Assembly (NCBI GenBank): GCA_041547605.1
Contig: JBFEUB010000002.1
Span: 1-45,784, forward strand
Origin: Desulfobacteria bacterium
GTDB lineage: Bacteria > Desulfobacterota > Desulfobacteria > Desulfobacterales > C00003060
Direction of reading: 5' to 3'
DNA length: 45,784 nucleotides
Under the pieces are notes generated by a model. It searched no databases, had not been told where the DNA came from, and was given only the letters and a program-made list of their open reading frames with translations. Shown here piece after piece: positions 22,334-44,407 of this stretch. The translations under genes were made by a program, and so were the position numbers. Numbering within the stretch: the stretch's first letter is position 1; every line of letters begins with the position of its first letter.

Positions 22334-22349
22334 TGGCATAAAACTTGCT
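22334..22349 (+). promoter_or_regulatory. sigma-54 (-24/-12) promoter of the minor-pilin operon
   Basis: TGGCAT-AAAAC-TTGCT has canonical GG/GC spacing. It lies 25 nt upstream of the ATG at 22374, with the GAGGTGGA RBS in between. Confidence 0.75.
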
Positions 22350-22373
22350 GTTTCGATTACCCGAGGTGGAGTG

Positions 22374-22925
22374 ATGAAGAGACACGAAAAAGGGTTCACC
22401 CTGGTAGAACTCATGATCGCCGTGGCTGTCCTGGCTATCATCGCGGCCATTGCGGTTCCCAACTACAGAGAATATATCCCCAAAGCGAGGGCTACCGGCG
22501 CTGCCAGGGAACTCTTCACTGAAATGCAGTTGGCCAGGCAGAAGGCCATATCTCGCAACAACGACTATGTGATCACATTCAATACCGGTAATGACAGCTA
22601 TACGATCTACAATGATGTGGACAACGATGGTCCAGAAGTGGGTGAAGTGGTAAAAACGATTTACATAGAAGATCATTACAAGGGGATCGGGTTCGGGTAT
22701 ATTGCAGGAAACAATCCGAGCGGCAGCCCGATCACGGGCAAGGTAACCTTTACGGACGACAAGTTTGCATTCGAGGCGACAGGTTTGGCCAACAAAGCCG
22801 GTGCTGTGTATCTCATTCCAAAGGAGGATATCGGTGCCTCCAGGAAAGACCGGCAAAGGGCTCTCACCGTGTTAGTGAGCGGGCGGGTGCGGTTATATGC
22901 TCACAACGGGACGGGTTGGCAGTAA
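22374..22925 (+). CDS. GspH/FimT-family minor (pseudo)pilin
   Basis: Has the prepilin signal KG|FTLVELMIAVAVLAIIAAIAVP. The start was set to the ATG at 22374. The body resembles the GspH/FimT domain. Confidence 0.75.
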   Translation: MKRHEKGFTLVELMIAVAVLAIIAAIAVPNYREYIPKARATGAARELFTEMQLARQKAISRNNDYVITFNTGNDSYTIYNDVDNDGPEVGEVVKTIYIEDHYKGIGFGYIAGNNPSGSPITGKVTFTDDKFAFEATGLANKAGAVYLIPKEDIGASRKDRQRALTVLVSGRVRLYAHNGTGWQ

Positions 22926-22999
22926 GGACTGTTCCCGTTTGATGGCTAGGCGCGGCGAATCTTGAAGGGAAGGGAAATCATATCATTGTGAGTACACAA

Positions 23000-23374
23000 A
23001 TGAAGAAAAAAAAGAGATATTCCACCACAGGGTTTACCCTACTGGAAGTCTTAATTGCGATCATCGTCTTGTCGTTCGCTCTACTGGCCATGGCCACCCT
23101 GGCTGGCTCTATCATGGGTTACAACAAGTTCGCGGATCATATGACCAAGGCCACCACCCTGTGTGAGGACAAAATTGAAGAATTTCAGAATGCTGATTAT
23201 TATGCCATTACAGGTTCAGCTTCTGATGAAACCGTTGAAACCCACTACACACGATCCTGGAGGGTTTACAGTGACGAACCACATACTGACATGAAGACCG
23301 TTGATGTGAGGGTGACATTTCAGTGGCAGAACAGATCCCATGATGTGGAACTTGCCACAATCATTATCAAATAA
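23000..23374 (+). CDS. pilV: PilV-like minor pilin
   Basis: Has the prepilin signal TG|FTLLEVLIAIIVLSFALLA. About 124 aa counted from the ATG at 23000; the ORF track starts at the GTG at 22988. Confidence 0.7.
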   Translation: MKKKKRYSTTGFTLLEVLIAIIVLSFALLAMATLAGSIMGYNKFADHMTKATTLCEDKIEEFQNADYYAITGSASDETVETHYTRSWRVYSDEPHTDMKTVDVRVTFQWQNRSHDVELATIIIK

Positions 23375-23418
23375 GACTGTTTTCCTTGTGCCAGGGACCA
23401 TGAAAGGAGATTCCGGTC

Positions 23419-24504
23419 ATGTCTGACAAAGGATTCACACTCGTTGAGATCTTGGTGGCCATCTTTGCCTCCCTGATTGTGCTCGGAGCCATTGCTGCTA
23501 CGTTTATTATACAAAACAAGAGCTACGACCGAGAGGACCAGATTGTTGATATGCAGGAAAATGTAAGGGCTGCCATGCAGATATTGACTGCCAAGCTTCG
23601 CATGACAGGCTATGATCCCACCGGTTTAACCGGGGCGGGGCTCGTTGCAGCAGATTCTGACAGCATTCAGTTCACCATGGACCTCAACGGGGATGGCGAT
23701 ATACTCGACACCAATCCAGATGAGGACATCACCTTTGCCTTGGACACCACCGACCTGCAACTGACCATGGACGGTCAGCCTGTGGCTGAGAATATTCCAA
23801 CCAATGGCCTTGTGCTGACGTATTTTGACAGCAATGATAACCAATTAACCACCCCCCTTTCCGCGGGAGACCTTGCCCGGGTTACGCGGATTACGATCCA
23901 GTTAACAGCCAGAACCAAGAAACCCGACCCTGATTATCCGGGGGGGTACCGGACACGGACACTCACCTCTGATGTGGTCGTGCCGAATTTGGCCCTGAGC
24001 AGCGCAACCACGACAGCCACGACAACCGTGGGGACTACGACCGAAGGGACGACAACAGTGGGGACGACAACAGAAGAGACCACGACGTCCGAGACCACAA
24101 CATCGGAGACCACGACATCGGAGACAACGACGTCCGCGACGACCACCGCGGAAACAACGACGACTGAACCCGGAACCACGGCAACGACGACTACAGAGCC
24201 TGTAGATTTGGAAGGCCCTACGATTGCGAATATCGTGCAGGCTCCTCCCGGGGGGCAGATCATGAACAATCGGGATGTAGCTGTTTGCGCCGATATCACA
24301 GACCCTTCTGGCCTACAAAGCTTGGTCTTATGGACGGATAGAGATGGAGCCCTTGGGATGACGCCAGAAGGTGGCAATACTTACTGTGGAGTGATTCCAA
24401 GCCACAACAACAAGTTTACGACGTACTACATCCTGGCACAGGATATCCTGGGCAATGAGACGCAGAGTGCCTCATTCACGTATGAGCAGGGTCCGCTTTA
24501 CTAG
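23419..24504 (+). CDS. PilW-like minor pilin with Thr-rich linker and C-terminal 2-Cys domain
   Basis: Has the prepilin signal KG|FTLVEILVAIFASLIVL and a PilW-like core. A Thr-rich linker spans about aa 195-260, followed by a ~100-aa C-terminal domain that is conserved in the 27018-28139 paralog. Confidence 0.7.
   Translation: MSDKGFTLVEILVAIFASLIVLGAIAATFIIQNKSYDREDQIVDMQENVRAAMQILTAKLRMTGYDPTGLTGAGLVAADSDSIQFTMDLNGDGDILDTNPDEDITFALDTTDLQLTMDGQPVAENIPTNGLVLTYFDSNDNQLTTPLSAGDLARVTRITIQLTARTKKPDPDYPGGYRTRTLTSDVVVPNLALSSATTTATTTVGTTTEGTTTVGTTTEETTTSETTTSETTTSETTTSATTTAETTTTEPGTTATTTTEPVDLEGPTIANIVQAPPGGQIMNNRDVAVCADITDPSGLQSLVLWTDRDGALGMTPEGGNTYCGVIPSHNNKFTTYYILAQDILGNETQSASFTYEQGPLY
24001..24198 (+). 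repeat. in-frame tandem coding repeats (Thr-rich linker)
   Basis: Four imperfect 15-bp units GAGACCACGACGTCC (ETTTS) at 24076-24135 are preceded by VGTTTE(G/E)TTT duplications. Confidence 0.8.
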
Positions 24505-24542
24505 AATCCGTTGCGTGCATAGAAAGGCCTTAGGAGGATATT

Positions 24543-25943
24543 ATGCAGGTCCTAAAACCATATAACAACGAACGTGGCTCGGTCTTGGTCACGAGTCTGC
24601 TATTTATGGCAATCTTGGCTATCATGGGGACGGCAGCGTATTTGAGTTCCTCCAACGATCTGAAGATCAGCAAGAATTACAAGATAGCCAAAGAGGCGTT
24701 CTATGCGGCCGAAGCCGGGCTGGAAGAGGCAAGGGGGCGGCTCAGGGGCTCAACTGGGGAGACGTATTGGGCAGGTGATCCCAACGGGGGAACCCCGGAC
24801 CCAAATTGGTCGGCTTATATCTTGACGCCTTTCACCGCCGCAGACTTTGTCTCCAATCCGGACCCCGAGTACGACTCCAACCAAACGAATTATTTTCCGG
24901 TTGCGGGAAGTTACACGTGGATGATCCCTACGACCAATAATATTTGGAGCCTAAAGGGGAAAACCACGTTTGTGCAGTTCGGGGTGAAGATCAGACACAA
25001 GAGAGAATACGACGCCGAGCAGGACGGACACACCACAGCCGCGCCCCACTACATTGATGGTGATGGCAGCACGTCTGGCGGTCATACCACTTCGTCGCGC
25101 GGCAGCATTATTTATTATGGGTATGAAGACCCAGCCCGCCCGTATCAGCTGGTTCAATTCACCACGTCGGGCGGCACAAACTATGAGCCGGTTGAAATCA
25201 TGAGGGCCTACGGATTCGGTGGGAATTTCGCCGGAGATGACTATAGTATGAGGGTCATTGAGATCGAGGTGGTGCGTCACCCGGGCCCGGCAATAAACTC
25301 TACCCTATATTCAGAGCAAAATATAAGTTTCAACGGAGGTGCTGCCAACATCAACGGAATAGATCAAGGCAGTGGAACAAATTGCGGGGGGGATGACCTG
25401 CCGCCGGTCTATACAAAGACGCCAGCCGTGACAGATCCGAGCGGGGCTTCTTCGAGCACCTTTAACGGGTCTCCGCCAGTCCCGGTGCAGGGACCGGCGG
25501 ATTATGACGTCCCGACCCTGGTCAGGAGCTACACGGCTGCGAGAGATATCACGCTTACGAGCGCTGATGGTTGCCTTCAAACAGGCATCCCGAACCACGA
25601 CACTTACGGGTCTTCTTCCGACTTTGTTACCGTGTATGTAGATCCCTCAGGATGTCCCGGGGGTGTCATGGGATTCAATAATATTACTGGTTGGGGCCTC
25701 CTTTTGGTGGACGGGGATGTGGCCTTTGGAGGCATCAGCAAGTGGAACGGGCTGGTCCTGGTTGGGGGCACGACCACTGCTTCGGGTGGCGGCGGTGCAG
25801 GACTGAACGTTGAAGGGGCGCTGATGTCAGAATCGACAGTGACTATTAACGGTTCCATCAATGCCCAATATAACAGTTGTTATATATTGGCTGCCTTTCA
25901 GACCCAATCGCCCGATATCATCAGCTGGAGAGAGATTCATTGA
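24543..25943 (+). CDS. pilX: PilX-N-domain protein, oversized (466 aa)
   Basis: The N-terminus (ERGSVLVTSLLFMAILAIMGTAAYLSSSNDLKISKN...AFYAAEAGLEEA) is PilX_N-like, and AGGAGGA lies upstream. A large G/T/S-rich C-terminal extension follows. Confidence 0.65.
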   Translation: MQVLKPYNNERGSVLVTSLLFMAILAIMGTAAYLSSSNDLKISKNYKIAKEAFYAAEAGLEEARGRLRGSTGETYWAGDPNGGTPDPNWSAYILTPFTAADFVSNPDPEYDSNQTNYFPVAGSYTWMIPTTNNIWSLKGKTTFVQFGVKIRHKREYDAEQDGHTTAAPHYIDGDGSTSGGHTTSSRGSIIYYGYEDPARPYQLVQFTTSGGTNYEPVEIMRAYGFGGNFAGDDYSMRVIEIEVVRHPGPAINSTLYSEQNISFNGGAANINGIDQGSGTNCGGDDLPPVYTKTPAVTDPSGASSSTFNGSPPVPVQGPADYDVPTLVRSYTAARDITLTSADGCLQTGIPNHDTYGSSSDFVTVYVDPSGCPGGVMGFNNITGWGLLLVDGDVAFGGISKWNGLVLVGGTTTASGGGGAGLNVEGALMSESTVTINGSINAQYNSCYILAAFQTQSPDIISWREIH

Positions 25944-26494
25944 CGCCGTTTGTCAAGTGTAACCCGTATCTCATCTTGCATGGCGAGTATTTCATCCACC
26001 TGATGCCGGTAAACACGGTAGAACCCGCCGCGGATGATTTTTTCCCTAAGGCCTTTCAATGCCTCTGAGAACTTGAAAAGCTCGTCGTTTGTCATGATGT
26101 AGCGAAACGCTCCGAAACGTTCCTTGGCCGCCTTGAACTCTTCCAGCAGTTTCTTTGCTTCCTCTGTTTCTTCCTTGGGGGCTGTTGCCGTCTCTTTTTC
26201 CGTCTCTGGCTTGGCTTGTGCCGGGGCTGGTTCAGGCTCAGGCACAGGTTCTTCCACAGGCACTGGCTGCACCTCTATGTAGGGGACGTCTGATTCCTGG
26301 ATGGTGCGGATGTGATCCTTTTGAATGGCCACAACGCCTCCGTAGTAGGGAAACTTCACCTGGTTGCCCTCGTCCCAATACTCGGAAACGAAAAACTTCT
26401 TCCTGTTTTTCAGCTCAATGAGATAGGAACCGATACAGATGGAAGGATAGATAAGAAGAGCGATGGCGATCCACACGGCGAGTATTCTTTTCAT
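25937..26494 (-). CDS. hypothetical secreted or membrane-anchored protein
   Basis: 185 aa with an N-terminal hydrophobic signal, a PVPVEEPVPEPEPAP linker and a helical C-terminus. It is convergent with pilX and overlaps it by 7 nt. Confidence 0.5.
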   Translation of the reverse strand: MKRILAVWIAIALLIYPSICIGSYLIELKNRKKFFVSEYWDEGNQVKFPYYGGVVAIQKDHIRTIQESDVPYIEVQPVPVEEPVPEPEPAPAQAKPETEKETATAPKEETEEAKKLLEEFKAAKERFGAFRYIMTNDELFKFSEALKGLREKIIRGGFYRVYRHQVDEILAMQDEIRVTLDKRRQ

Positions 26495-27017: not shown

Positions 27018-28139
27018 ATGTCTGAAAAAGGATTTACACTCGTTGAGTTCCTGATTGCCATCGCGGCTTCACTGGTTGTGTTGGGCGCGATTGCCGCTGC
27101 CTTTATTTTTCTAGAAAGGGGTTACAACCAAAAGACAAAACTTGTTGAGATGCCAGAAAATTTTAGAGCCGGCCTGCGGTTCATGACCGAAGAGCTTTCA
27201 AAGGCAGGGTATGATCCTACCGGAACGGCTGGAGCCGGTCTCGTCGTGGCAGGTCCCGACACGATCCAGTTCACTATGGACTTGAATGGAGACGGTGATG
27301 TCGTCGACACCAACCCGGATGAAGATGTGACGTTTGCTGTGAACCGGACCCAGCTTCGGCTGACCAGGAACGGCCAGCCGCTGGCTATGGACATGCCAGC
27401 CGATGAACTTGTCTTCACGTATTTCGATCGCTATGACAACCAATTGATTGGTGCCCCCCTGTCGCTTGCGCAGAGTGCCAGGGTGGCGCGGATTAGCGTC
27501 AAATTGACTGCTAGAGCCGACAAATCTGACTCTGGATACCCAGAAGACGGCTACCGGACATGGACGCTGACGTCCGATGTGCTTGCGCCCCATTTGGCCA
27601 GCGCTGGCAGGAGGATGACGACACCAACAACAACCGAAACAACAACGACCGGCCCAACGACAACCGCAGCTCCAACAACGATCCCGACCACGACGACCAC
27701 AGAACCACCGCAAACCACGACCACGACGACAACTGCAGCTCCAACAACGGTCCCGACCACGACGACGACCACGACGACAAAAGGAACAACAACAACGACG
27801 GCTACGACCACGACAACAACTACCACCACAACCACGACGACCACGCAAGACATGGAAGGACCCAAGATTTCAGAGGTCAGTCAGGTTCCCGCTGGGTCAC
27901 CCGTACCAGGGAATAAGACGGTCATTGTGTGTGCGGCGCTTGCTGACCCTGCCGGTGTAGCGAGCGTCACCTTGCACAGCGATCAACATGGAGACGTTGC
28001 GATGTCCCTTTACGCTGGCGACATGTACTGTGGGAATCTTTCAAGGAAGAATAACCAGATGGTTACCTATTATATGATTGCAGTGGACCGCTTGGGAAAT
28101 CGAACGACGAGCGATACGTATTCTTACTATCAGAAATAG
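27018..28139 (+). CDS. PilW-like minor pilin paralog with poly-Thr linker and C-terminal 2-Cys domain
   Basis: Has the prepilin signal KG|FTLVEFLIAIAASLVVL. The ATG at 27018 is the likely start; the ORF track starts at 26994. The Thr/Pro-rich linker is at nt 27615-27842. The core and C-terminal domain align with the 23419-24504 product. Confidence 0.7.
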   Translation: MSEKGFTLVEFLIAIAASLVVLGAIAAAFIFLERGYNQKTKLVEMPENFRAGLRFMTEELSKAGYDPTGTAGAGLVVAGPDTIQFTMDLNGDGDVVDTNPDEDVTFAVNRTQLRLTRNGQPLAMDMPADELVFTYFDRYDNQLIGAPLSLAQSARVARISVKLTARADKSDSGYPEDGYRTWTLTSDVLAPHLASAGRRMTTPTTTETTTTGPTTTAAPTTIPTTTTTEPPQTTTTTTTAAPTTVPTTTTTTTTKGTTTTTATTTTTTTTTTTTTTQDMEGPKISEVSQVPAGSPVPGNKTVIVCAALADPAGVASVTLHSDQHGDVAMSLYAGDMYCGNLSRKNNQMVTYYMIAVDRLGNRTTSDTYSYYQK

Positions 28140-28882
28140 CCCGGGACAGGACACCTCCTCAGACCCCACCAGAGCCGCAGGAGATGTGCATAGCGATAGA
28201 CGCCTTCATGCACGATATTGAACTTGCTTGCTCTGAAGTCCTCACACCATACAGGTATTTCGATAATCCTGCCACCGTCTCGATGCACCAGGGCGATCAT
28301 GTCAATCACGTACGACGTGCCATGATTGATTCTGTCCAAATGCCCGAGAAGGACTGATCTTCGGTATGCCTTGGCGCCGATGGAGTAGTCTTCAAAGGCA
28401 AGATCAAGGAGACGCCTGGAACAAAAAATGAAAAGCCCGCTTCCCAGAATTCTAAAGCCCGATCTCCTTTGTTGGCCCATCTTTTTTGAACCGACTACAA
28501 TTTCATAGCCCTCATCCAGCAGGTTGAGGGCCTGCTCAATGAAGCCAAGGTCAACGGAAAGATCCATGTCAAGGGAAACAATGAAGCCATGTCGCGCCAT
28601 ACGAACACCTTGTCTGAACGCGTGCCCAACGCCCCTTTGCGACACGTGAAAAAACCGGACCGTGGGATACTGGTCGGCCAGACTCTCTCCCAGCAGTGGG
28701 GTTTTGTCCCTTGAGCCATTGCTTCCGATGATAATCTCAAACGATTCATAAAGCCCGTTCAGATGGGCTATGAGGCTCTCCGTATTCTGAACCATGATAT
28801 CTTGCTCATTGTAGACTGGAATAATGATGCTAAACGGCTTCAAGCAACGAATCCTCCAAACAGACGCAATTGGCGTATCCAT
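28130..28882 (-). CDS. family 2 glycosyltransferase (DPM1/ArnC/GtrB-like size)
   Basis: Has the GT2 N-terminus FSIIIPVYNEQD. A TTG at 28843 is an alternative start that would give MKPFSIIIPVYNE. It overlaps the upstream TGA as TTGA and has GGAGGA 8 nt upstream. Confidence 0.75.
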   Translation of the reverse strand: MDTPIASVWRIRCLKPFSIIIPVYNEQDIMVQNTESLIAHLNGLYESFEIIIGSNGSRDKTPLLGESLADQYPTVRFFHVSQRGVGHAFRQGVRMARHGFIVSLDMDLSVDLGFIEQALNLLDEGYEIVVGSKKMGQQRRSGFRILGSGLFIFCSRRLLDLAFEDYSIGAKAYRRSVLLGHLDRINHGTSYVIDMIALVHRDGGRIIEIPVWCEDFRASKFNIVHEGVYRYAHLLRLWWGLRRCPVPGYF

Positions 28883-30192
28883 GAGTGTATATTTCCCCGG
28901 GTGATGCGGGATAGAATATATTGGGGTCTCAAGTAAAAGCGTTTAAAGGCCTCTCGTGACATTTTAGTGAGCAGGAGCGGATTGTGCTCGGCGCAATACA
29001 CGGGGAAGTCTGGCGTTGTCTTCACGTCGGATGAGGCAGACAAGGCATTTTTGTAAAGGGGGGTGCCGGGGTAAGGGGTGACGACGTGAAACGAGGCATA
29101 GGTCGGATTAAGCGTTTTGGCAAATGAGATGGTCTTTTGCATATCGGCTGGTGTTTCTCCGGGTAGTCCAAACAAGAAAAAGCAGGCAGTGTCGATTCCT
29201 GCCTCCTGTGTCAGCCGTACCCCTGTGTGGATGGTGGCAAGACCGACCCTTTTCTGCGTATCACGCAAAACATCTTCTGAGCCGGACTCCACGCCAAAGT
29301 GGATCAGGCGGCATCCCGCTTGCTTCATCTTGGATAAGAGCGCAGCATCCACAGCATCCGCCCTTGTCTGGCAGCACCAGATAAAAGGATGCTTTTGTTC
29401 AGACAACCGGTCACAGATCTTGACTGTGCGATCTCGGTTCAGTGTAAACTCTAAATCAATAAAATATCCTGTGCGCACGCCGAATTTGGTGACCGCTATA
29501 TCTATCTCGTTGATCAACCGACCCACCGGCTTGAACCGGACACCCTCTCCGAACATGACTTTCAAACAGAAGCGACACGGATATGGGCAACCCCGAGAAC
29601 TCTCAAATAAGGCAAAGCGTTTCCCCAAGAGTTCATAATAGTACCTGCTAAAATCGATCAGATCAAAGGCGGGCACAGGAGTCTGTGCCATATCCAGTGG
29701 CTCTGCTGGGCCGTTTGATGTGAACGTATTTTTTCGTTTGAAAACGACCCCGGGGGTGGCACCCCAGTCGCCTTCCGAGACGAGCCTGACCACTGCCGGC
29801 TCGGGCTCACCCACCACAACGGCTGCGGCACCTGTTTGCTCCAGCATGGCCTGTGGAAAAAGCGAGCCGTGAGCCCCAACAATGATCAGCTTTTCCGAAG
29901 GGCATGACTGTGCAATGGCTATAAAGTGGTCAACCTCCAGGTTGGGGCACTGCCAGCGGTCTATGGGAGATGAGGTCAAAACGATCCAGTCATATTGGTG
30001 GCTGATTCTATTGACTTGTCGGCGCCAGCCTGGCTGCACCCGGCCGTCGATGATCTGAACCGCACATCCTGCCTCTCGCAGCATGGCAGCGCATACCATC
30101 AGGCTGAGGGGTGGCCAAGCTCGATTGAACCGCTTACCCTGCCGGCTGACTTGCCCCGGCCAGTTTGGATTAATCAACAGTACTTTTTTCAA
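28840..30192 (-). CDS. B12-binding-domain radical SAM protein
   Basis: The N-terminal KKVLLINPNW... region resembles a cobalamin-binding domain. The radical SAM motif is CPYPCRFC. The start codon is TTG. Confidence 0.75.
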   Translation of the reverse strand: MKKVLLINPNWPGQVSRQGKRFNRAWPPLSLMVCAAMLREAGCAVQIIDGRVQPGWRRQVNRISHQYDWIVLTSSPIDRWQCPNLEVDHFIAIAQSCPSEKLIIVGAHGSLFPQAMLEQTGAAAVVVGEPEPAVVRLVSEGDWGATPGVVFKRKNTFTSNGPAEPLDMAQTPVPAFDLIDFSRYYYELLGKRFALFESSRGCPYPCRFCLKVMFGEGVRFKPVGRLINEIDIAVTKFGVRTGYFIDLEFTLNRDRTVKICDRLSEQKHPFIWCCQTRADAVDAALLSKMKQAGCRLIHFGVESGSEDVLRDTQKRVGLATIHTGVRLTQEAGIDTACFFLFGLPGETPADMQKTISFAKTLNPTYASFHVVTPYPGTPLYKNALSASSDVKTTPDFPVYCAEHNPLLLTKMSREAFKRFYLRPQYILSRITRGNIHSWIRQLRLFGGFVA

Positions 30193-30197
30193 CTTGG

Positions 30198-30269: not shown

Positions 30270-30295
30270 CGACTCGGACCAAAGGCCATAGGTTT

Positions 30296-30830
30296 TCAAA
30301 GCTTTTTCACAATTCTTTTAATACCATTTTTGAGTACTGAAACATTAAAGTTTATGATCAGCCCCACCTTGATGTTTGATAACTTCAAGTATGTGAGAAG
30401 CTGAGCTTCATGGATGGCTTGAACTGCAACAGCGAGCGCATTCCCTGTAGCTTGCTACAGGGTTAGGAGCGACTCTGAAAATGGTACCCTTCCTTACAGT
30501 CGCTGCGAAGCACTGCCGTCAGGCAGAACATTCCCTGCAGATTATATGAAACGGGCTGCAGGGAGCTTCAATAGTGTCGCAGGATTTCAATTCCAGAACC
30601 AAAACATTCTTGATTATGAGATCGATACGATAGCCGCAATCTAGCTTTACCCCTTTGTATTCAAGTGGGAGTTCCTCCTGACGGACAAAGCTTATTTTTC
30701 TTAAAGACAATTCCGTGAAAAGACACTGTTCATACGCAGATTCTAAGAGCCCAGGCCCGAGGGCCTTGCGGACCTCGGTAGCAGCTCCTATCTCCTTTTG
30801 TGTCAGTTTGTTTATTTCTTCCATGGACAA
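30296..30830 (-). pseudogene. GxxExxY-family (PD-(D/E)XK-like) gene interrupted by a repeat element
   Basis: The 5' part (30830..30573) encodes ...LGPGLLESAYEQCL...VLELKSCDTI. The 3' part (30418..30296) is in another frame and encodes [40 protein letters not shown]. The two parts are separated by the 154-bp repeat. Confidence 0.85.
30419..30572 (-). mobile_element. MITE/REP-like repeat, long form (copy 7), inserted into the GxxExxY gene
   Basis: Both conserved ends are present (TTGAACTGCAACAGCGAGCGCATTCCCTG ... CTGCAGGGAGCTTCAAT). The interior is homologous to copy 1. The flanks reconstitute one ORF. Confidence 0.85.
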
Positions 30831-36697: not shown

Positions 36698-36801
36698 GCA
36701 GCCCGATGCAACGTTTAACCAAACCAGCTGATTTCATCGTTTTGCGGCGAAACACGGAGAATCAACAACACAAACATCATCTGAGAATTGAGGAGGCTGT
36801 T

Positions 36802-37560
36802 ATGCGGAAGCGATCACCTTGGTTTATACTCTCTTTGTGTTGCGCCTTATGCTTCGTCTCCTGCGCCACGAATATGGCTGAGCGGAAACTAAAGGCAGAA
36901 GCATTCAGGCATCTCGGCGAAAGATACCTCGCACAGCGGAATGTTAGAGGGGCACTAAAAGAATTCTTGAAAGCAGAGGCACTCTATGATGAGAACTACC
37001 TTCTGCAAAATGATCTGGGGTTGGCCTATTCTGAAATGGGGAAATTGGATCTGGCACTCAAACACTTCGAGAAGGCTTTAGACCTCAATCCCGATTATGC
37101 GGGGGCCTGGAACAATATAGGAACCGTCTATATTAAGTTGGAAGAATGGGACAAGGCCATCGGCAGTTTCAATCGCGCTCTTGACCAATTGCTCTATGCC
37201 ACGCCTCATTTCGCCCTGAACAATCTAGGCGAGGCATACCGTGGGAAAAAAGATTACGAGCGTTCGGTTTTGTACTACAGAAAAGCCCTCCACGCAGAAC
37301 CCCGCTTTGTTAGGGCGCACCGGGGATTGGCGCTGACCTACATGGAGATGGGAGACTATGACAGGGCTGTTTCTTCGCTCGAGAAGGCGGTTGAATATGC
37401 TCCAGACTATGCCCTTGCCTACTATGATCTGGGCCGTGCTTACATTGGCAGGTATAACAGGGAGAAAGCCCTTTCCGCCTTCAAAAAGGTCATCGCGCTG
37501 GTCCCGAATTCGCCGCTAGCGGATGCAGCTTCGGCTGAAATGAACAAACTTGAAAGATAA
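36802..37560 (+). CDS. pilF: TPR lipoprotein, type IV pilus biogenesis/stability PilF(PilW)-type
   Basis: The ATG at 36802 is preceded by AGGAGG. A lipobox is present (LCFVSC), followed by about six TPR repeats (GLAYSEMGKLDLALKHFEKALDLNPDYAGAWNNIG...). Confidence 0.6.
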   Translation: MRKRSPWFILSLCCALCFVSCATNMAERKLKAEAFRHLGERYLAQRNVRGALKEFLKAEALYDENYLLQNDLGLAYSEMGKLDLALKHFEKALDLNPDYAGAWNNIGTVYIKLEEWDKAIGSFNRALDQLLYATPHFALNNLGEAYRGKKDYERSVLYYRKALHAEPRFVRAHRGLALTYMEMGDYDRAVSSLEKAVEYAPDYALAYYDLGRAYIGRYNREKALSAFKKVIALVPNSPLADAASAEMNKLER

Positions 37561-37666: not shown

Positions 37667-38704
37667 CTAGGGAAATGTGGCGTGAATTGTGGCCCCTGGT
37701 ACAATCGACTTCTCGGAGTAAATTACAAGGGCTGTGGCCGTGGTCTCCTCGGTGAGAAGAATGAGGATTTTGGCATAATCGACCGGCGTGAGGAGGACAT
37801 CTTCTTTCGCCTTGGGATCGATACGTTCTTTTTCCTGATAATATACAGAGTAAGACTGACCGACCTGGACGCCGTCTTCGCGACCCTTGTTGATAAAAGC
37901 AATGGCATGTTCGGCAAAGATTGTTTGACCTTCCTCCGCAGAAAAGATGCTGCCCCGCAGACCTTCTTTGCTTTCGGTCAGTAGAATGTTGGGTGATCGA
38001 GGCTCGTAGGGCATCAAGAGGTCACCCCGTTTAATACTTCTGTACGATGCTACAATCCTTCCCAAAGAGAATTTCGGCTGCACATCCGTGATTTCAACCA
38101 CGCCCAGCAAATAGTGCTGGGTGCCGATCAGCTTCTTGGTTTCTTTGTCCGTCAGGGGCTTCAGAGTCCTAAACACCGTAAAACGATCTCCAGGCTTGAA
38201 GATGACGTCTCCGATCGGCCGGACATAAACCACATCCCGCTGACTCATCATCTCCTTGTCTTCCTTGACCTTGAAGATGGTGCCAGAAGGATGTACAGGC
38301 TCATTCCTGATAAAGCCCACGCTGTCAATGGCGGGATAGTAATAGTACTCCGGTTCTGGAGGCGGTGGCCCTATTCTTGGTTCTGGTGGTGGTTTGGACC
38401 CAAACATCCTTTCCAGTTCCTCACGGCTATAGATGCGAACCTGCTCGCCCGGATAAATCCAGTGGGGATTGGCAACCGCCTGATTCTTTTCCCACAGATC
38501 GGGCCAAATGCACGGCGAATCATAGAAATGCTCAGACAGGTCCCACAGGGTATCACCCTTCTGCACGGTATAGTAGAGGCCCGACTCCAGTTTAATGGTT
38601 TTTTCTCCGGGTTCCTCTGAACAGGCGCTCATGGGGCTGAGCCATCCGACTGCGACCCCCACACAAAGGCATGTGATGATTTGGAAAACCTTTTTGGAAA
38701 ACAT
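37667..38704 (-). CDS. LysM-domain periplasmic protein, TsaP-like candidate
   Basis: 345 aa with a signal peptide and an N-terminal LysM domain (YYTVQKGDTLWDLSEHFY...IYPGEQVRI). It lies immediately downstream of pilQ on the same strand. Confidence 0.55.
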   Translation of the reverse strand: MFSKKVFQIITCLCVGVAVGWLSPMSACSEEPGEKTIKLESGLYYTVQKGDTLWDLSEHFYDSPCIWPDLWEKNQAVANPHWIYPGEQVRIYSREELERMFGSKPPPEPRIGPPPPEPEYYYYPAIDSVGFIRNEPVHPSGTIFKVKEDKEMMSQRDVVYVRPIGDVIFKPGDRFTVFRTLKPLTDKETKKLIGTQHYLLGVVEITDVQPKFSLGRIVASYRSIKRGDLLMPYEPRSPNILLTESKEGLRGSIFSAEEGQTIFAEHAIAFINKGREDGVQVGQSYSVYYQEKERIDPKAKEDVLLTPVDYAKILILLTEETTATALVIYSEKSIVPGATIHATFP

Positions 38705-38847: not shown

Positions 38848-41151
38848 CTATCTCACCTCTTCGAGTTGGACGATCGTTGGCGTCATAAAGATTAGCAACT
38901 CGGTTTTGTTATGGGTTTTGAGCCTTGACTTGAATAGCCATCCCAGTACAGGTATTTTTGAAAGCCCTGGTACCCTCGCCTCCCCGGTTGACCTGTCCTC
39001 CGTAATGATTCCCCCGATCACGATGGTGTCACCGTTGTTGACCAGAAGTTCTGTGGTGGTTTGTTTTGTATCAATGGGAGGCTGGCCTAAGACTGCATTT
39101 CCAAAGTCGGGTGAGTCCTTTGTGGCGGTGACCCTCATGGAAACACGATTGTCCATGGTTATGTGAGGGATGACCGTCAAGCTCAAAACAGCGTCAACGA
39201 ATTCGACACTGATGGTTCCTTCTTCCTCCTTCTGATACGGGATCTGCTGGCCCTGCTTGATATTTGCTTCTTTGTTATCCAAAGTGAGGACCTTTGGAGC
39301 CGATATGATCTTCAGCGTGCCTTCTTGCTCTGCGGCCGTGAGTGCTGCGTCGATGTCAAGTGACGTCAAACCACCCGGAAATCTGCTGAAAGTAAAACCG
39401 ATGCCGCTTGTTGGCGCCCCCGGGGGTAAATTGACAGCGTAGTTGGCCGGACCACCCACGGCACCGGAGAACCCCCACGGGCCTCCTAAATCGTCTGCCC
39501 CCCGGAGTGTTTGGTGTGTGAATCCCCACTGAATACCAATTTCTCTCGAGAAGTTAGTCTCCGCTTCCACAATCCGTGCCTCGATCATTACCTGGCGAGT
39601 AACCACATCTAGCTTCCTGACGACCTCCTTGGCACGCTCTATTCCATCCCGGATGTCTGTCATAATGACCATATTGGTCCGTTCATCAACAGTGACCTTT
39701 CCACGCTCCGTCTTAACCTCCTTTATGTGCCCCTGCATGGCAGTAGCGTCGCTGTAGTTGACGGGTATATATTCTGTAACCAAGGGCGCTGCTTCTTCTG
39801 CTGCTTCCTGGACCCTCTTTTCGGCCGCCTTTTCTGCTTCAATAGTGGCAAGTGGCGCAATGCGTATGATATTTCCCTCCTCAGAGACTCCCAGTCTGTT
39901 CATCTTCGTGACCAGGTCCAGGGCCTGATCCCAGGGGACCTTGTCAAGCTTTAGCGTGACCCTGCCTCTCACATCTTCCCCTATGACAAAGTTCTTTCCG
40001 CTTATTTCGTGGAGGATACGAAAGACATTACGAACATCGGCATTCTGGAAATCGAGTGATATCTCTTGTCCTGTATAGACCTGTCCCGTGTCGGGCGATA
40101 CGACCTTGACGGAAGGCGCTTCAGGCATGCCTGTGACTACCGTCTCGGTCTCTTTCATCACCTGTTGCCATTTTGGCATCTCCACATCTGCCAGGGGCCT
40201 GGGTGGCACGGTGGAAGGCTCAAAATCAACAAAAAAGACATTATCTTTCTGCTCAACTCTGTAAGGGACGGCCTCCCGGAGCTCAATGGCTATGAGGGCT
40301 GTTTCTCCCATCTGAGGCGTTTGTACTGGTACGACGCGATCAACGGCGCTCTTAAACCGTGTCGTTATGAGAGGGCGCTTTTCGAATTTTGGGATCCTTG
40401 TATTAAATAGCTTCAAGAGGACCCGCGTGGGCGAAGGTCGCTCCGTCTCGTATCGGACTTGCTCGGTAGTTCGCACGATAACCCGGGACTTACCCTCGTC
40501 CATCATGAGGAAGTTTATCCGGTTCACCCAGGCTGGCTTTCCGACTGCCTCAGCTTCTGCTGGAACCGGTGCCGGCTCTTGTTCTGGCTCTGCTGTATCT
40601 GGAATAGTTGCCTCTGTGGTCTCTGGCGGTCCTTCAGCGGTTGGCCCTGCAGTCTCTGAGGGCTCTTCAGCGGCTATTGCTTCGGGTGCTGGCTGCTCTG
40701 CTGGTTTTTTGAAGTTGACCAGAACGTCTGTCTCTTCCTGGATGACTTCGTATTCAACATCCTCGTTCAAGTTGATCTGAATCCTGGAGGGCCCTTGTTT
40801 TCCCGTCGGTTGAGAGGCAACAACGCTCTCAATGAGTGTACTCTCCGGGGTATAGGTTTCTGGGACCCCTTCCAACGATGTGTTCGGGAAATAAAGGACT
40901 ACGCCAAGTGGGGAGAGGTGTTTGATTGCGGAGTAGTCCACGGGCTGGTTGCTCTTGATGGTGACGACAACCGCGGTTTGTTCCTCGCTGACCGAGACTT
41001 CGTGGATAACGCTCTCGGAGGCAGCAGGTTCGGCTTCAACCTCCCCAGGCTTGGTTGTTGCCTTGGTGGCACATCCTGTTACCATGAATAGGAGTACCAA
41101 CGGCAATATGAGCCAATAATTACTCCAACATCTTCTCAGCAAGCAGTTCAT
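38848..41151 (-). CDS. pilQ: type IV pilus secretin PilQ with N-terminal AMIN domains
   Basis: Has the secretin C-terminal domain (...PVLGWLFKSRLKTHNKTELLIFMTPTIV), two AMIN-like segments and a lipobox (MVTGC). The ATG at 41151 is preferred over the TTG at 41166. Confidence 0.88.
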   Translation of the reverse strand: MNCLLRRCWSNYWLILPLVLLFMVTGCATKATTKPGEVEAEPAASESVIHEVSVSEEQTAVVVTIKSNQPVDYSAIKHLSPLGVVLYFPNTSLEGVPETYTPESTLIESVVASQPTGKQGPSRIQINLNEDVEYEVIQEETDVLVNFKKPAEQPAPEAIAAEEPSETAGPTAEGPPETTEATIPDTAEPEQEPAPVPAEAEAVGKPAWVNRINFLMMDEGKSRVIVRTTEQVRYETERPSPTRVLLKLFNTRIPKFEKRPLITTRFKSAVDRVVPVQTPQMGETALIAIELREAVPYRVEQKDNVFFVDFEPSTVPPRPLADVEMPKWQQVMKETETVVTGMPEAPSVKVVSPDTGQVYTGQEISLDFQNADVRNVFRILHEISGKNFVIGEDVRGRVTLKLDKVPWDQALDLVTKMNRLGVSEEGNIIRIAPLATIEAEKAAEKRVQEAAEEAAPLVTEYIPVNYSDATAMQGHIKEVKTERGKVTVDERTNMVIMTDIRDGIERAKEVVRKLDVVTRQVMIEARIVEAETNFSREIGIQWGFTHQTLRGADDLGGPWGFSGAVGGPANYAVNLPPGAPTSGIGFTFSRFPGGLTSLDIDAALTAAEQEGTLKIISAPKVLTLDNKEANIKQGQQIPYQKEEEGTISVEFVDAVLSLTVIPHITMDNRVSMRVTATKDSPDFGNAVLGQPPIDTKQTTTELLVNNGDTIVIGGIITEDRSTGEARVPGLSKIPVLGWLFKSRLKTHNKTELLIFMTPTIVQLEEVR

Positions 41152-41152
41152 T

Positions 41153-41857
41153 TTATAATTCCCCAAGTTTTTTCTGTAGTATTAAATCCACTGTTTGCAG
41201 TTTCATCTGACCAGTAAAAAAATCTTCAACCTCTTCCTCAACAATGACTCTATCCCTCAGTATTCTTTTCACTTGGCCAAAATTCGCGCCAAGGTATGTC
41301 CCCTTTGTGACCACATACCCCTTGCCGGATGGTTCCTCTATCAAGGCCTTGTTTCCTGTGGCAGAGATAATGATTCCTACCACTTTGAGTTGACTCAAGT
41401 CTATCTTCTGAAGCGGCGTGAGGGGAAGCTTTCTTTCACGGGCACTTATCTGGACCTTAGTTCCTCTGCGTGCGCTTGGCTGCGTTACGAAAAGGGATTG
41501 AAAGGGATCTATCTTCCCCTTGGGATCATAGACGTATGCCGCCTTTTTCAGAGTCTCTTCGGGCCCTTCTGGGCTCGGTTCCGGCTCTAACTCAGCTTCA
41601 AGGGGCTCTAGTTCCGCCTCAGGGGGAGCCGGTTCTACTTTGGCCTCTTCCACGGGAGGTTTCTCCGGAGCCTTTGGGGCTTCCTCCTGATCACTCGGTT
41701 TCACTGCTTGGGCAGCAGGCGGTTGGGGTGCCTCAACCTTTTTTCGAATGACCACGGGGCTGGCGGGAGGTGTCGGCTCTTGCTGCTCTCCGCATCCTCC
41801 TGCAACAAGGAGCATCAGCCCCAGAACAAGGAGAAGCTTACAAGGAGTCCGTGGCAT
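41153..41857 (-). CDS. pilP: pilus assembly lipoprotein PilP
   Basis: The start was set at MPRTPCKLLLVLGLMLLVAGGCG (lipobox). It has a P/A/E-rich linker and a C-terminal PilP-like beta domain. It sits between pilO and pilQ. Confidence 0.7.
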   Translation of the reverse strand: MPRTPCKLLLVLGLMLLVAGGCGEQQEPTPPASPVVIRKKVEAPQPPAAQAVKPSDQEEAPKAPEKPPVEEAKVEPAPPEAELEPLEAELEPEPSPEGPEETLKKAAYVYDPKGKIDPFQSLFVTQPSARRGTKVQISARERKLPLTPLQKIDLSQLKVVGIIISATGNKALIEEPSGKGYVVTKGTYLGANFGQVKRILRDRVIVEEEVEDFFTGQMKLQTVDLILQKKLGEL

Positions 41858-41883
41858 TGTCATGTCGCCTTTGTTCCTCCATC

Positions 41884-42492
41884 TCATTGCGATCCGGCCG
41901 GTGAGGGCTGTGCGGCCTCCAAAAACCTGTAAGTCATGGCCACACATGAGGCATTCAAGACTCCCGGGGTCAGCGCGGGCGCCTGTATATTAATATTCAG
42001 TATATTGACGATGCGGGAGAGCCTTGCGACTCTGTCAAAAAACATGGCCAGGTTGTGATATCCACCCGATACCTGAACATTGACGGGAATCTCGGCGTAA
42101 AAATCTCTTGGCGCCTCTGGGCCGGGCTGGAACAGCAGAAATTCAAGACCGGAATCTTTGCCTGACTTTGAAACCCCTTCCAGGAGACCTGGAATTTCCC
42201 GCTTGTCCGGCAAAAGCTGAAGAGCCAATTTGAACTTTCCCTGTGCCTCCTCAAAATTTTTCTGAAACCTTTCGAGGTTTTCTGCGGCATTTCTGGCCGT
42301 GAAAAGCTTACTTTGAAGTGTTTCGTATTCATCCCTCAAGTCAGTGAGTTCCTGGGATTTTGGCGCGTAGATAAGATAATAAAAACCGCCGCCTAAGATC
42401 AAAAAAAGTCCCACACAAATCAAAATCCTTTGCGTGCGGCCTATGGCTGCGATCTTTTCAAACGGAAAGGACGGAAGTGCAATCTTTGCCAT
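41884..42492 (-). CDS. pilO: pilus assembly protein PilO
   Basis: 202 aa with a single TM followed by a coiled coil. Its position between pilN and pilP is conserved. Confidence 0.75.
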   Translation of the reverse strand: MAKIALPSFPFEKIAAIGRTQRILICVGLFLILGGGFYYLIYAPKSQELTDLRDEYETLQSKLFTARNAAENLERFQKNFEEAQGKFKLALQLLPDKREIPGLLEGVSKSGKDSGLEFLLFQPGPEAPRDFYAEIPVNVQVSGGYHNLAMFFDRVARLSRIVNILNINIQAPALTPGVLNASCVAMTYRFLEAAQPSPAGSQ

Positions 42493-42513
42493 CTGTCTCT
42501 ACTGCATTTTGGG

Positions 42514-43074
42514 TTATTGTGGAAGTTGTAAGATTAAGGCCTGACAAGTGACGCTGAACTCTTTGAATTTTCTGCCCTCGGCCATTGCCACCTGTTTAGC
42601 AGCAACGAGATTGACCCCATCAAAATATGGTGACTCTTCAAGACGCCTCATGAAGTCAGCCACGGTCTTGTTGTCCACGGCTACCCCGTTGAGGGTTATC
42701 TGACCAGCGGCCTCGTTCAGGCTTGTTAGCCACATCTTTTGGGCTACCACCAGGCTCGTAAGGGCATCCATGATCCGAACCGATCCAATGCGGTTTGCAT
42801 CCAACCGCTGGATGATATCCATCTTTGCTTGAAGCCTGTTTAGATTGTCCTGGATTTCTTTGACCTGTTTGTTGATGGCCTCAAGTTCCGCGAGTTCATT
42901 CTGAGCATCTCCTATGTCGGCTTCCATATTATTTATTTTGCTGCTTACGTCATACGCCAGGTAACCCATGAAAGCGAGACCCATCAGGACAGTGAGGAAA
43001 AAGATGGATACCTGCCGTCTAATGTCTTCCTTTTTTCGTGCAGCTCGAACCGGCAAAAGATTGACACGGATCAT
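42514..43074 (-). CDS. pilN: pilus assembly protein PilN
   Basis: Has the canonical N-terminus MIRVNLLPVR, a single TM and a coiled coil. It overlaps pilM through an ATGA junction. Confidence 0.85.
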   Translation of the reverse strand: MIRVNLLPVRAARKKEDIRRQVSIFFLTVLMGLAFMGYLAYDVSSKINNMEADIGDAQNELAELEAINKQVKEIQDNLNRLQAKMDIIQRLDANRIGSVRIMDALTSLVVAQKMWLTSLNEAAGQITLNGVAVDNKTVADFMRRLEESPYFDGVNLVAAKQVAMAEGRKFKEFSVTCQALILQLPQ

Positions 43075-44126
43075 TTCTCGTCCACCCTCCTCGATGCCAG
43101 GCCCATACAGATCGCAGCTTGAGGAGCAATCCTTTGAAGGTAGTCCACATCATTATTTTTTTCGTTAACCTTGACGTTCATGAAAGGGTTACACATTTGT
43201 ACATCGATGGAGGTTTCAGCCGAAAGGAGTTCGGAAAATCCCTCGGTCTGGGCTGCGCCACCACTCAGCATGATTCGGCCAATGTCTTCGTCCGAACCCG
43301 TAGAGTAGTAAAAATCAATGGCCCGTCTGATCTCCGCACCCCAGCTGGAGATGACGGAATAGACAATTTCACGGACATCTTCCTCAGGCACCCTGTCCTT
43401 GTCTTGCCCCAGCTTAACAGCTTCGGCCTCCTCAAAGGCACAATCAAACCGAGAGGCAATCTCGCGGCTAATCTGCTCGCCTCCAATGTTCACATCCCGC
43501 GTAAAGGCAGACATATAACCCTTTACGATGTTGATATTCATCTTGTTAGCCCCGATATCAATCAGGCCAACGGTTCCTTCTTCGTTCAAGTAATTTTCTT
43601 CAAACACCCTTTCCAGGGCAAAGACATCAATATCGATCACGCAGGGATTCAGGCCCGCCATGTCCAGAAGGTCTACATACTCATTAATGATCTCGGTCTT
43701 GGCCGCGACCAGCATCACATTCATTTGATTTGGGTTTAGTTCACTTTCTCCAATGATGTGAAAGTCGATGTTAACATCGTCCAAATCGAAGGGGATATAC
43801 TGCTCGGCTTCATATTGAATGTTCTCGTGGAGCTCCTCGTCTGTCATTTTCCCCACAGTGATTCTCTTGATAATGACAGAATAACCAGCAACCGAGGTGG
43901 CTACATTCTGCTCACTGACTCTTAGGTCTGATGTGAGGCCCTTGATCACATCAGCCACCCCAGCGGGATCTTTGATACGACCCTCCACTATGGCATTCTG
44001 AGGCAAGTTGGCCATGCCGAACTTTTCCAAGGTACGGCCCTTCTTTGTCTGCTGGACCTCACACAACTTAATCGTTCGAGAGCCGATGTCTATGCCTATA
44101 AGGTGGTCCTTTTTGGCAAAAACCAT
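43071..44126 (-). CDS. pilM: pilus assembly ATPase-like protein PilM
   Basis: Shows the actin/FtsA-like fold pattern (LIGIDIGSRTIKL...GLIDIGANKMNI...MLSGGAAQ). 351 aa. Confidence 0.88.
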   Translation of the reverse strand: MVFAKKDHLIGIDIGSRTIKLCEVQQTKKGRTLEKFGMANLPQNAIVEGRIKDPAGVADVIKGLTSDLRVSEQNVATSVAGYSVIIKRITVGKMTDEELHENIQYEAEQYIPFDLDDVNIDFHIIGESELNPNQMNVMLVAAKTEIINEYVDLLDMAGLNPCVIDIDVFALERVFEENYLNEEGTVGLIDIGANKMNINIVKGYMSAFTRDVNIGGEQISREIASRFDCAFEEAEAVKLGQDKDRVPEEDVREIVYSVISSWGAEIRRAIDFYYSTGSDEDIGRIMLSGGAAQTEGFSELLSAETSIDVQMCNPFMNVKVNEKNNDVDYLQRIAPQAAICMGLASRRVDEK

Positions 44127-44135
44127 CTCATTTCC

Positions 44136-44333
44136 TTAACTGTGGAATACTTTGTCTTTTTCCGAAAGCTCGTAACCAAGGGCCAAAAGGATCTTCCGCT
44201 TGGTCTCCATACGGCAATCCATACCCTTTTCTATCCTGTCAATGGTAATAGGAGAGACACCGGCCTTTCTTGCTAGTTCGGCTTTGCTCATCAAAAACGA
44301 TTCGCGAATCTCTCTTAACCTGTTCTTATGCAT
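44136..44333 (-). CDS. XRE-family helix-turn-helix protein
   Basis: 65 aa with the HTH segment MSKAELARKAGVSPITIDRIEKG. It lies 9 nt upstream of pilM on the same strand. Confidence 0.7.
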   Translation of the reverse strand: MHKNRLREIRESFLMSKAELARKAGVSPITIDRIEKGMDCRMETKRKILLALGYELSEKDKVFHS

Positions 44334-44391
44334 TTAGATTTTAGTCCCGTCGAGCAAAAAATGAAGTCTTTAGTCACGTCCGCTTTCTGTA

Positions 44392-44407
44392 TGCAAAAGG
44401 GGTGCCA
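44392..44407 (-). promoter_or_regulatory. sigma-54 (-24/-12) promoter of the XRE-pilMNOPQ operon
   Basis: The minus sense reads TGGCAC-CCCTT-TTGCA, a perfect consensus. It lies about 58 nt upstream of the ATG at 44333. Confidence 0.8.

Follow-up and report, generated by a model that had tools for sequence, protein, structure and literature searches.

TfpW, the enzyme that modifies the group IV pilins of Pseudomonas aeruginosa/paraeruginosa, combines a GT-C membrane glycosyltransferase with a C-terminal periplasmic tetratricopeptide repeat (TPR) domain, is encoded beside the pilin gene, and uses a polyprenyl-phosphate sugar donor to O-arabinosylate several Ser/Thr residues of the pilin (bioRxiv 10.1101/2020.04.19.049825). 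Modular type IV pilins, in which a pilin module is joined to a functional module expected at the filament tip, are widespread and architecturally diverse (PMC8179133). Here, we describe a type IV pilus (T4P) region with likenesses to both: positions 22334-44407 of a 45,784-nt stretch of contig JBFEUB010000002.1 (GCA_041547605.1, Desulfobacteria bacterium; the whole stretch is called the window below), whose gene content was assessed by open reading frame (ORF) calls and by Pfam and NCBIfam profiles. It encodes two PilW-like pilins with Thr-rich stalks, PilWa and PilWb, and, next to the latter, a cassette with a GT-C/TPR enzyme. By analogy to TfpW, we propose that these candidate tip pilins are probably O-glycosylated by an inserted, general module for Thr tracts. 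The PilW proteins are a new form of modular pilins and the cassette is an uncharacterised GT-C system; no new kind of pilus is involved.

The likeness to TfpW lies in the GT-C and TPR architecture beside a pilin gene, seen in the window and at L077, a locus of a distant relative (loci of other genomes carry L numbers throughout). However, TfpW has 646 aa, modifies the major pilin PilA and is encoded directly downstream of pilA, whereas the window enzyme has 944 aa, belongs to PF10131, contains an additional soluble domain, and is accompanied by a CARDB-like protein. Its candidate substrates, unlike that of TfpW, are the poly-Thr linkers of minor PilW-type pilins, and the cassette lies mostly away from pilins. 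PilWa and PilWb share the fusion of a pilin with an extra module with the described modular pilins (PilB-vWA and PilC-lectin of S. sanguinis, CofB, ComZ, and GspK). In the latter, the two parts are joined by a short loop, whereas every retrieved member of the window type has a poly-Ser/Thr (poly-S/T) stalk of 50-110 residues. Moreover, the carrier here is the PilW of the priming complex of diderm type IVa pili (T4aP), and the added module is a single immunoglobulin (Ig)-like repeat without a Pfam match. A more distant precedent than TfpW is offered by the Ppm1/Pmt, PMT, TMTC1-4, and TMEM260 systems, in which a family 2 glycosyltransferase (GT2) makes a polyprenyl- or dolichyl-phosphate-sugar and a GT-C enzyme transfers the sugar to S/T-rich regions or beta-sandwich domains. 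The TMTCs are themselves GT-C proteins with TPRs, and HHpred links them to PF10131 (PMC7801869); PMTs act on S/T-rich substrates. The system considered here departs from all of these in its membership of PF10131 rather than PMT/PMT_2, in an additional B12-binding radical S-adenosylmethionine (rSAM) enzyme and the CARDB-like partner, and in its presence in diderm bacteria and archaea.

The inserted glycosyltransferase cassette

The cassette spans 6.7 kb between the orphan pilWb and a gene for a double-LysM protein and forms a minus-strand unit convergent on pilWb (Table 1). Its 944-aa membrane protein belongs to a family that Pfam assigns to the GT-C clan (CL0111) and lists as of unknown function (PMC7801869). 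Its AlphaFold2 (AF2) model (predicted local distance difference test score, pLDDT, 76.8) has the GT-C fold, with Foldseek matches in the PDB to AftD (4e-7), STT3 (3e-5), AglB, Pmt4, and ArnT, and its C-terminus matches TPRs of the YbgF/BamD type. There are more than 1,700 bacterial and archaeal homologues; a GGD motif (G44-G45-D46) in the first loop, directly after the first transmembrane (TM) helix, is invariant in 21 homologues at 42-91% identity. Its partner, the 292-aa protein p292, has no Pfam match of its own, and its homologues show weak or faint CARDB matches. The gene is present where an earlier sequence-only reading had placed a 'beta-sandwich' membrane protein, while that label comes down to these CARDB matches. 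In L078 (L078:8957-12667), a p292-like protein and a GT-C/TPR protein form one continuous 1,236-aa ORF, a natural fusion which suggests that the two act together.

The best alignments of the GT2 protein span residues 10-224 and are to ArnC (2.5e-12), DPMS (9e-8), PpgS, and the halophilic Dol-P-hexose transferase; none of the equivalog scores comes near its cut-off, and the protein has no counterpart of the C-terminal TM helices seen in ArnC/GtrB. Its gene abuts pilWb, with overlapping stop codons. The nearest NCBIfam models of the B12-binding rSAM enzyme are AprD4, HpnJ, and BchE, likewise far below their cut-offs (164 vs 500; 146 vs 578). With its ArnC/DPMS-like GT2 and its GT-C/TPR enzyme, the unit appears to have the make-up of a polyprenyl-phosphate-sugar glycosylation module, in agreement with the putative glycosylation module of the sequence-only reading. 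No DprE1/DprE2-type genes are among the Pfam matches of the window. The small GxxExxY gene, which that reading did not mention, is probably a truncated passenger. In the same-genus locus L001, this slot holds a gene for a 23S_rRNA_IVP four-helix bundle (L001:10604-11038), and one is also found in the L005 cassette (L005:8593-8868).

We analysed 86 loci with the GT-C gene, comprising 80 GTDB species representatives and 6 metagenomic loci. The gene has p292 upstream in 57/86, GT2 next to it in 56/86, and rSAM next to it in 34/86, with archaeal loci included among these. The cassette ranges over Desulfobacterota, anammox Planctomycetota, Nitrospirota, Acidobacteriota, and archaea, and its surroundings differ from locus to locus (ClpXP/Lon, DinB, ValRS/NadC, HemL/PBP1A, and an exopolysaccharide (EPS) locus). 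In L001, the full block is syntenic, and most of its proteins are 84-100% identical to those of the window. At L077, the order is p292, GT-C, GT2, and p185 (a gene also found after pilX in the window), then pilX, pilW (with a poly-S/T linker), pilV, and fimT on the opposite strand, and finally a GDP-mannose pyrophosphorylase gene; here the GT-C protein is only 36% identical to that of the window, and the rSAM gene is missing.

Two further relatives, L093 (PilW 74% identical) and L087, share with the window the colinear series p185, orphan pilW, LysM, pilF, tsaP, and pilQPONM. Nothing in them matches 28.14-34.9 kb of the window, save a 120-bp piece near the GxxExxY gene: window positions 30454-30572 recur in an intergenic region of the cassette-less L093 (L093:5467-5575). 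As these loci are colinear on both sides without it, we conclude that the cassette was inserted between the orphan pilW and the LysM gene. The G+C content of the window is about 50%, and its composition profile shows no clear anomaly across the cassette; hence, composition lends no independent support to a recent transfer. We consider it very probable that the region is a composite of a T4aP minor-pilin operon, a machinery cluster, and an independent cassette inserted between them. Given the insertion and the synteny, we advise against annotating the 22-kb block as a single system. The synteny of modification and pilin genes, on which the sequence-only reading had made its single system depend, does recur at L077, whereas co-inheritance of the 22 kb is contradicted by L093 and L087.

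Some other apparent links between cassettes and pili were set aside. The pilins at L078 are probably there by chance, being 6 kb away behind purL/purQ and including a plain PilW, and so is the lone pilin-like gene of L036, 8 kb away behind unrelated genes. A prepilin-motif match at L081 is false, lying inside PBP1A. Genes for MshEN/T2SSE ATPases near the cassette (L005:14655-16472; L143:365-2278 in a Nitrospiria genome) were likewise treated as chance, being found in 2 of about 90 loci, which are distant from each other.

PilW stalks and poly-Ser/Thr neighbours

PilWa and PilWb are 60% identical in their pilin domains and 41% identical in their Ig-like domains. Each has a Thr-rich linker of 70-90 residues, followed by a domain some 95 residues long in which two Cys are conserved. 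In the AF2 model of PilWa, the pilin head (75-187) has a pLDDT of 80-94, the linker (194-261) one of about 30, as for disordered segments, and the all-beta domain (269-358) one of 71-89. Foldseek relates the latter to generic Ig/FN3-like modules (the BIg repeats of SiiE, enzyme-appended FN3 modules, and CopC). As modelled, PilWa and PilWb are modular pilins, with a pilin module and an independently folded extra module, in line with the domain-bearing pilins proposed from the sequence. The window proteins have no match to PF16074, and homologues at 30-60% identity match PF27121 (PpdB) and/or PF16074 (PilW) and carry the JGI name PilW.

Homologues of the pilin domain at 40-62% identity are mostly plain proteins of 190-210 aa. 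We searched for the Ig-like domain in 1.84 billion representatives with a HMMER profile that also included the pilin part of P0131, matches being assigned by profile position. The domain occurs in 5-21 tandem copies in proteins of 1,000-4,000 residues, which we take to be of an adhesin type, and once per protein in at least nine clusters of PilW-linker-Ig pilins of 345-400 aa. The S/T-rich linker of 50-110 residues is kept in every one of these pilins, although the sequence of their pilin domain has drifted strongly. A word-index homologue search with the C-terminal domain alone gave one match. The PilW of L077 has a poly-S/T linker and an unrelated Cys-rich domain. What is new and unusual is the long S/T stalk and the use of PilW as the carrier of a module. 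A related PilW at L101:10001-11089 has neither a poly-Thr linker nor the Ig-like domain but, instead, poly-Asp linkers and a duplicated terminal module; elaboration of the PilW C-terminus seems to be recurrent in this clade.

At the DNA level, the linkers are imperfect tandem repeats with periods of 15/30/45 nt (PilWa, 24019-24161) and 9-69 nt (PilWb, 27625-27845). Such repeats may allow length variation and probably break short-read assemblies. Many PilW homologues are found on contigs of 1-2 kb that end inside the linker.

Long Ser/Thr tracts are not restricted to pilins among the neighbours of the cassette. Using a criterion set before the results were seen, namely an ORF with at least 70% Ser+Thr in a 30-residue window, we found a poly-S/T ORF density of 3.3 per 100 kb up to 5 kb from the GT-C gene, 0.4-1.0 between 5 and 10 kb, and 0.5 across 391 kb of control loci without the cassette, i.e., a distance-dependent enrichment of about 6-fold near the GT-C gene. 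By species, 20/80 have such an ORF within 10 kb, 17 of them within 5 kb and 3 only at 5-10 kb (binomial p ~0.01). The comparison with the control loci gives p = 0.002-0.007, and both control matches are antisense artefacts. The proteins carry signal peptides or lipoboxes and come from about a dozen unrelated exported families, including FecR-domain, Peptidase_S74-chaperone, small Ala-rich (in tandem), and VCBS/FG-GAP proteins, besides a PilW pilin. In several Desulfobacterota, the cassette adjoins a gene for an exported FecR-domain protein whose very long poly-Thr tail ends in LPGPPGPP (L002:15816-16778, L031:6621-7835, L039:3-881, L041:6487-7827). In a Nitrospirota locus added after the main scan (L143:7588-8829, Nitrospiria, GCA_036397255.1), the gene immediately upstream of p292-GT-C-GT2 encodes an exported, cupredoxin-like/VCBS-like protein whose poly-Thr tail is about 100 residues long. 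The poly-Thr tract is the common denominator of the cassette neighbours. The L143 cassette is followed by a GMC-oxidoreductase-like gene and an epimerase gene.

A possible route to glycosylated tip pilins and its rivals

We infer the enzyme chemistry, the substrate, and the location of PilW from T4aP biology and the analogies given above. In this scheme, the minor pilins FimT/U-PilV-PilW-PilX would form the priming/tip complex, and the products of XRE-pilMNOPQ, tsaP, pilF/tgl, and the LysM gene would form the envelope-spanning machine. PilW would present an adhesin-like Ig domain on a flexible poly-Thr stalk at the pilus tip. Of the products of the inserted operon (in the order p292, GT-C/TPR, (GxxExxY), B12-rSAM, GT2), the GT2 would load a sugar onto polyprenyl phosphate at the cytoplasmic face. 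The lipid-linked sugar would then be flipped across the membrane, and the GT-C enzyme would attach it in the periplasm to the Thr residues of such tracts as the PilW stalks. Handling of the protein substrate may fall to the TPR domain and the CARDB-like partner, and tailoring of the sugar or its donor to the rSAM enzyme. Until they are assembled, prepilins stay in the inner membrane, their C-terminal parts facing the periplasm. For this reason, and because their genes lie beside the cassette, as in the case of TfpW and PilA in Pseudomonas, the PilW stalks would be accessible and are likely substrates. We put the probability that the cassette glycosylates the PilW stalks at about one half. We offer only tentatively, as a claim that may well fail, the broader proposal of an undescribed poly-Thr ('mucin-like') O-glycosylation system of several phyla and both prokaryotic domains, recruited here to the stalks of tip PilW proteins as the first dedicated glycosylation of a minor tip pilin. 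We found no publication that describes the cassette.

Several observations weigh against glycosylated stalks, and some of them favour a rival in which the adjacency is coincidental. According to this rival, the target of the cassette is either something in the envelope other than protein (lipid A or another glycolipid, EPS, peptidoglycan, or a polyprenol-linked intermediate) or its own CARDB-like partner alone, and the PilW linkers are unmodified spacers or are modified by other means. Most cassette loci are in unrelated housekeeping or EPS contexts, and the L004 cassette, in an EPS locus with Wzy, Wza, and Wzc, is compatible with a glycan or lipid acceptor. The closest likeness of the GT2 is to ArnC, an enzyme of lipid A modification. 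Only 3/80 species loci (L077, L078, and L036), together with the same-genus L001, have pilins within 10 kb; direct adjacency is confined to L077 and the genus of the window, and of the three species loci only L077 is convincing. L093 and L087 have a T-rich orphan PilW and no cassette between pilW and the LysM gene; hence, a poly-Thr linker needs no adjacent cassette, though the two genomes could carry one at another site. About three-quarters of the cassette loci are without a poly-S/T neighbour within 10 kb, the species loci in the enrichment test are phylogenetically non-independent, and a 2x2 table of poly-Thr PilW against cassette adjacency, which draws on a handful of lineages, is not significant. 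Nor did a metagenome scan with a 7-sequence PilW alignment turn up a cassette gene in any of the PilW loci of 5 kb or more that it recovered, about 20 in number. Finally, no flippase gene is present, and the placement of the TPR domain of the GT-C enzyme in the periplasm comes from helix counting only. Against coincidence stand the distance-dependent enrichment of exported poly-S/T proteins from so many unrelated families, the TPR domain and fixed protein partner, which suggest a protein substrate, the independent repetition of the arrangement at L077, and the overlap of the stop codons of the cassette and pilWb. We regard coincidence as less likely than not, and as the weightiest of the rivals.

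Two other accounts fare worse. It is improbable that the rSAM/GT2/GT-C unit makes a modified lipid or small-molecule glycoconjugate, by hopanoid chemistry of the HpnJ type or sugar chemistry of the AprD4 type, and no glycoprotein at all. The idea draws on the nearest rSAM models, AprD4 (a sugar diol-dehydratase) and HpnJ. However, the rSAM scores are far below the cut-offs of those families, the rSAM gene is missing in more than half of the cassettes, including that of L077, and the Pfam matches of the window include no hopanoid or aminoglycoside genes nearby. There is similarly little to recommend the suggestion of the sequence-only reading that the whole 22 kb is one dedicated, co-evolved system, i.e., a specialised, decorated pilus or pseudopilus with its own modification enzymes and peptidoglycan-binding accessories and without PilY1. 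The full synteny in L001 and the pilin-cassette arrangement at L077 are in its favour. Conversely, the cassette is absent from the T4P-syntenic L093 and L087 and is widespread without pilins; the LysM/TsaP/PilF/PilMNOPQ genes are an ordinary T4aP set, kept with or without it; PilQ and PilM fit T4aP and not type II secretion system (T2SS) models; and a relative has a PilY1-like gene with a second minor-pilin set at the same locus (see below).

If the stalks are indeed glycosylated by the cassette, PF10131, a large family, would gain a testable function in the O-glycosylation of poly-Thr tracts, and this would account as well for the way in which the long poly-Thr linkers and tails in surface proteins of many environmental diderms are stabilised. 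The idea of the modular pilin would extend to the PilW of the T4aP priming complex. To our knowledge, pilin glycosylation has so far been known for major pilins (TfpO/PglL, TfpW), and it would thus extend to minor pilins located at the tip.

The pilus locus and its surroundings

The genes listed by the sequence-only reading are all present at their places (Table 1).

Table 1. Features of the region, with positions in the window
Feature	Positions	Strand	Evidence and remarks
Sigma-54-like -24/-12 element, TGGCATAAAACTTGC	22334-22348	+	1 mismatch; 26 nt upstream of fimT ATG
FimT/FimU(GspH)-like minor pilin	22374-22925	+	Pfam N_methyl 3.7e-10, GspH 5e-7; prepilin motif GFTLVELM
PilV-like minor pilin	22988-23374	+	N_methyl; TIGR02523 35 bits, below cut-off 52; operon position
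PilW-like modular minor pilin A (PilWa), 361 aa	23419-24504	+	Pilin domain 1-190, poly-Thr linker ~194-261, Ig-like C-terminal domain 269-358
Large PilX, 466 aa	24543-25943	+	PilX_N; DUF7305 also in homologues
p185, 185-aa exported or lipoprotein-like protein	25937-26494	-	Convergent with pilX
Orphan PilW-like modular pilin B (PilWb), 381 aa	26994-28139	+	Poly-Thr linker ~203-285, Ig-like domain 286-381
GT2, polyprenyl-phosphate glycosyltransferase type (ArnC/DPMS/GtrB-like)	28130-28882	-	Pfam Glycos_transf_2 2e-22
B12-binding rSAM enzyme	28840-30192	-	Pfam B12-binding and Radical_SAM
Small GxxExxY / PDDEXK_3 gene	30519-30830	-	Probably 3'-truncated passenger
GT-C membrane glycosyltransferase, 944 aa	30904-33738	-	PF10131 PTPS_related 1.2e-40; soluble domain, two extra TM helices, C-terminal TPR
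p292, 292-aa bitopic exported protein (CARDB-like)	33757-34635	-	Fixed partner of GT-C enzyme
Double-LysM periplasmic protein	34904-36697	+	Two LysM stretches; after orphan pilW in L087, L093
PilF/Tgl-like TPR lipoprotein (pilotin-type)	36643-37560	+	TIGR02521 107 bits (cut-off 154), Tgl 90 bits; TPR matches; lipobox in translation; likely start near 36799
TsaP-like LysM protein	37667-38704	-	LysM 4.5e-7; FlgT_C 1.8e-5, 25.5 bits, just below cut-off 27
pilQ-pilP-pilO-pilN-pilM	38848-44126	-	Transcribed pilM to pilQ; Pfam Secretin/AMIN, PilP, PilO, PilN, PilM_2
65-aa XRE-type HTH gene, first of pilM operon	44136-44333	-	HTH_3 4e-9; upstream of pilM also in L090-L092
Sigma-54 -24/-12 consensus, TGGCACCCCTTTTGC	44393-44407	-	Perfect TGGCAC-N5-TTGC; 60 nt upstream of XRE start

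The locus agrees with the canonical T4aP systems (fimU-pilVWXY1E and pilMNOPQ of P. aeruginosa; the minor-pilin/PilY1 clusters, Tgl, and TsaP of M. xanthus) in its gene families, in the order pilM-N-O-P-Q, in a PilF/Tgl-type lipoprotein and a TsaP-type LysM protein, and in the series fimT/U-pilV-pilW-pilX. It differs from them in that no pilY1/pilE follows pilX in the window, in the small XRE gene and sigma-54 consensus before pilM, in the conserved p185 that converges on pilX, and in the orphan pilW and double-LysM gene within the cluster. Four ORFs, and no others in the window, have the prepilin motif of a class III signal peptide (G-F-T-L-x-E) with a hydrophobic helix after it, and the N-terminus of PilX is PilX_N. 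The backbone of SerRS, ThrC, fimT, pilV, pilW, pilX, and the oppositely oriented p185 is kept in L088/L089, L097, and L098, and in L094 from ThrC onward only. A p185 homologue follows pilX in L001, L077, L088, L093, L095-L099, L101, L108, and L109. The protein has a small, beta-rich N-terminal domain and a charged helical tail, has no family match in Pfam or NCBIfam, and appears to be the product of an undescribed T4P-associated gene. In L093 and L087, an orthologous orphan pilW immediately precedes the LysM gene. By virtue of their conservation in relatives, p185 and the double-LysM protein are stable, uncharacterised members of the T4P locus of this clade.

The sequence-only reading was right that a major pilin, PilY1, PilB/T, and PilC are missing from the window, as judged by Pfam and the prepilin motif, and none is found in the 8 kb to the right. 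In L088 (L088:10752-16258) and L089 (L089:6078-13120), a second minor-pilin set (fimT2-pilV2-pilW2-pilX2) comes after p185 and is followed by a giant PilY1-like protein (no fewer than 1,077 aa, and 1,589 aa in L089), with matches to the start of the PilY1 beta-propeller at the contig-truncated end. This second set takes the place of the orphan pilW and cassette of the window. Since these relatives encode a PilY1-like protein, the lack of PilY1 is local and gives no evidence for a PilY1-less pilus, so that its absence does not stand as a trait of the system.

In the machinery cluster, PilQ (AMIN x2, STN/N0, Secretin) scores 419.5 bits against TIGR02515 (cut-off 284), and the GspD, YscC, and MshL models are below their cut-offs. 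PilM scores 265 bits against TIGR01175 (cut-off 133) and 2.6e-80 against PilM_2; an identical PilM is encoded in assembly GCA_041563195.1. The remaining Pfam matches are PilN 1.9e-20, PilO 8.9e-43, and PilP 4.2e-17, and the gene order is M-N-O-P-Q. We rejected a T2SS pseudopilus, since PilQ and PilM pass T4aP-specific models and the GspD model fails; the pseudopilus option of the sequence-only reading is thus unsupported. The tsaP-like gene adjoins pilQ, a position kept in L087, L090, and L093, and the series orphan pilW, LysM, pilF, then tsaP, pilQPONM, and XRE on the opposite strand recurs in the same three loci. The pilMNOPQ/tsaP/pilF part is textbook T4aP.

The two sigma-54 operons proposed to bracket the region have one perfect site and one with a single mismatch. 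The perfect TGGCAC-N5-TTGC site before XRE-pilM is the single zero-mismatch site of the window; allowing up to one mismatch gives 8 sites, where 3.6 are expected. The site before fimT is identical in L001 and absent in L088 and L077; as it is not kept beyond the genus, sigma-54 control of the fimT and XRE-pilM operons is plausible from the sites and goes no further than that. The window has no enhancer-binding protein gene, and a scan of 22-41.9 kb for sigma-70 promoters and terminators gave no excess over shuffled sequences.

Housekeeping genes fill positions 1-22131, the last two being those for SerRS and threonine synthase (ThrC), and to the right of the window lie the ETF-QO, RimP, NusA, and IF2 genes. 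The housekeeping part also holds a trio of exported/lipoprotein genes (FlgT_N-like, TPR, and LPP20; 1531-5114, minus strand) and a stand-alone PilZ-domain gene (7721-8065, plus strand).

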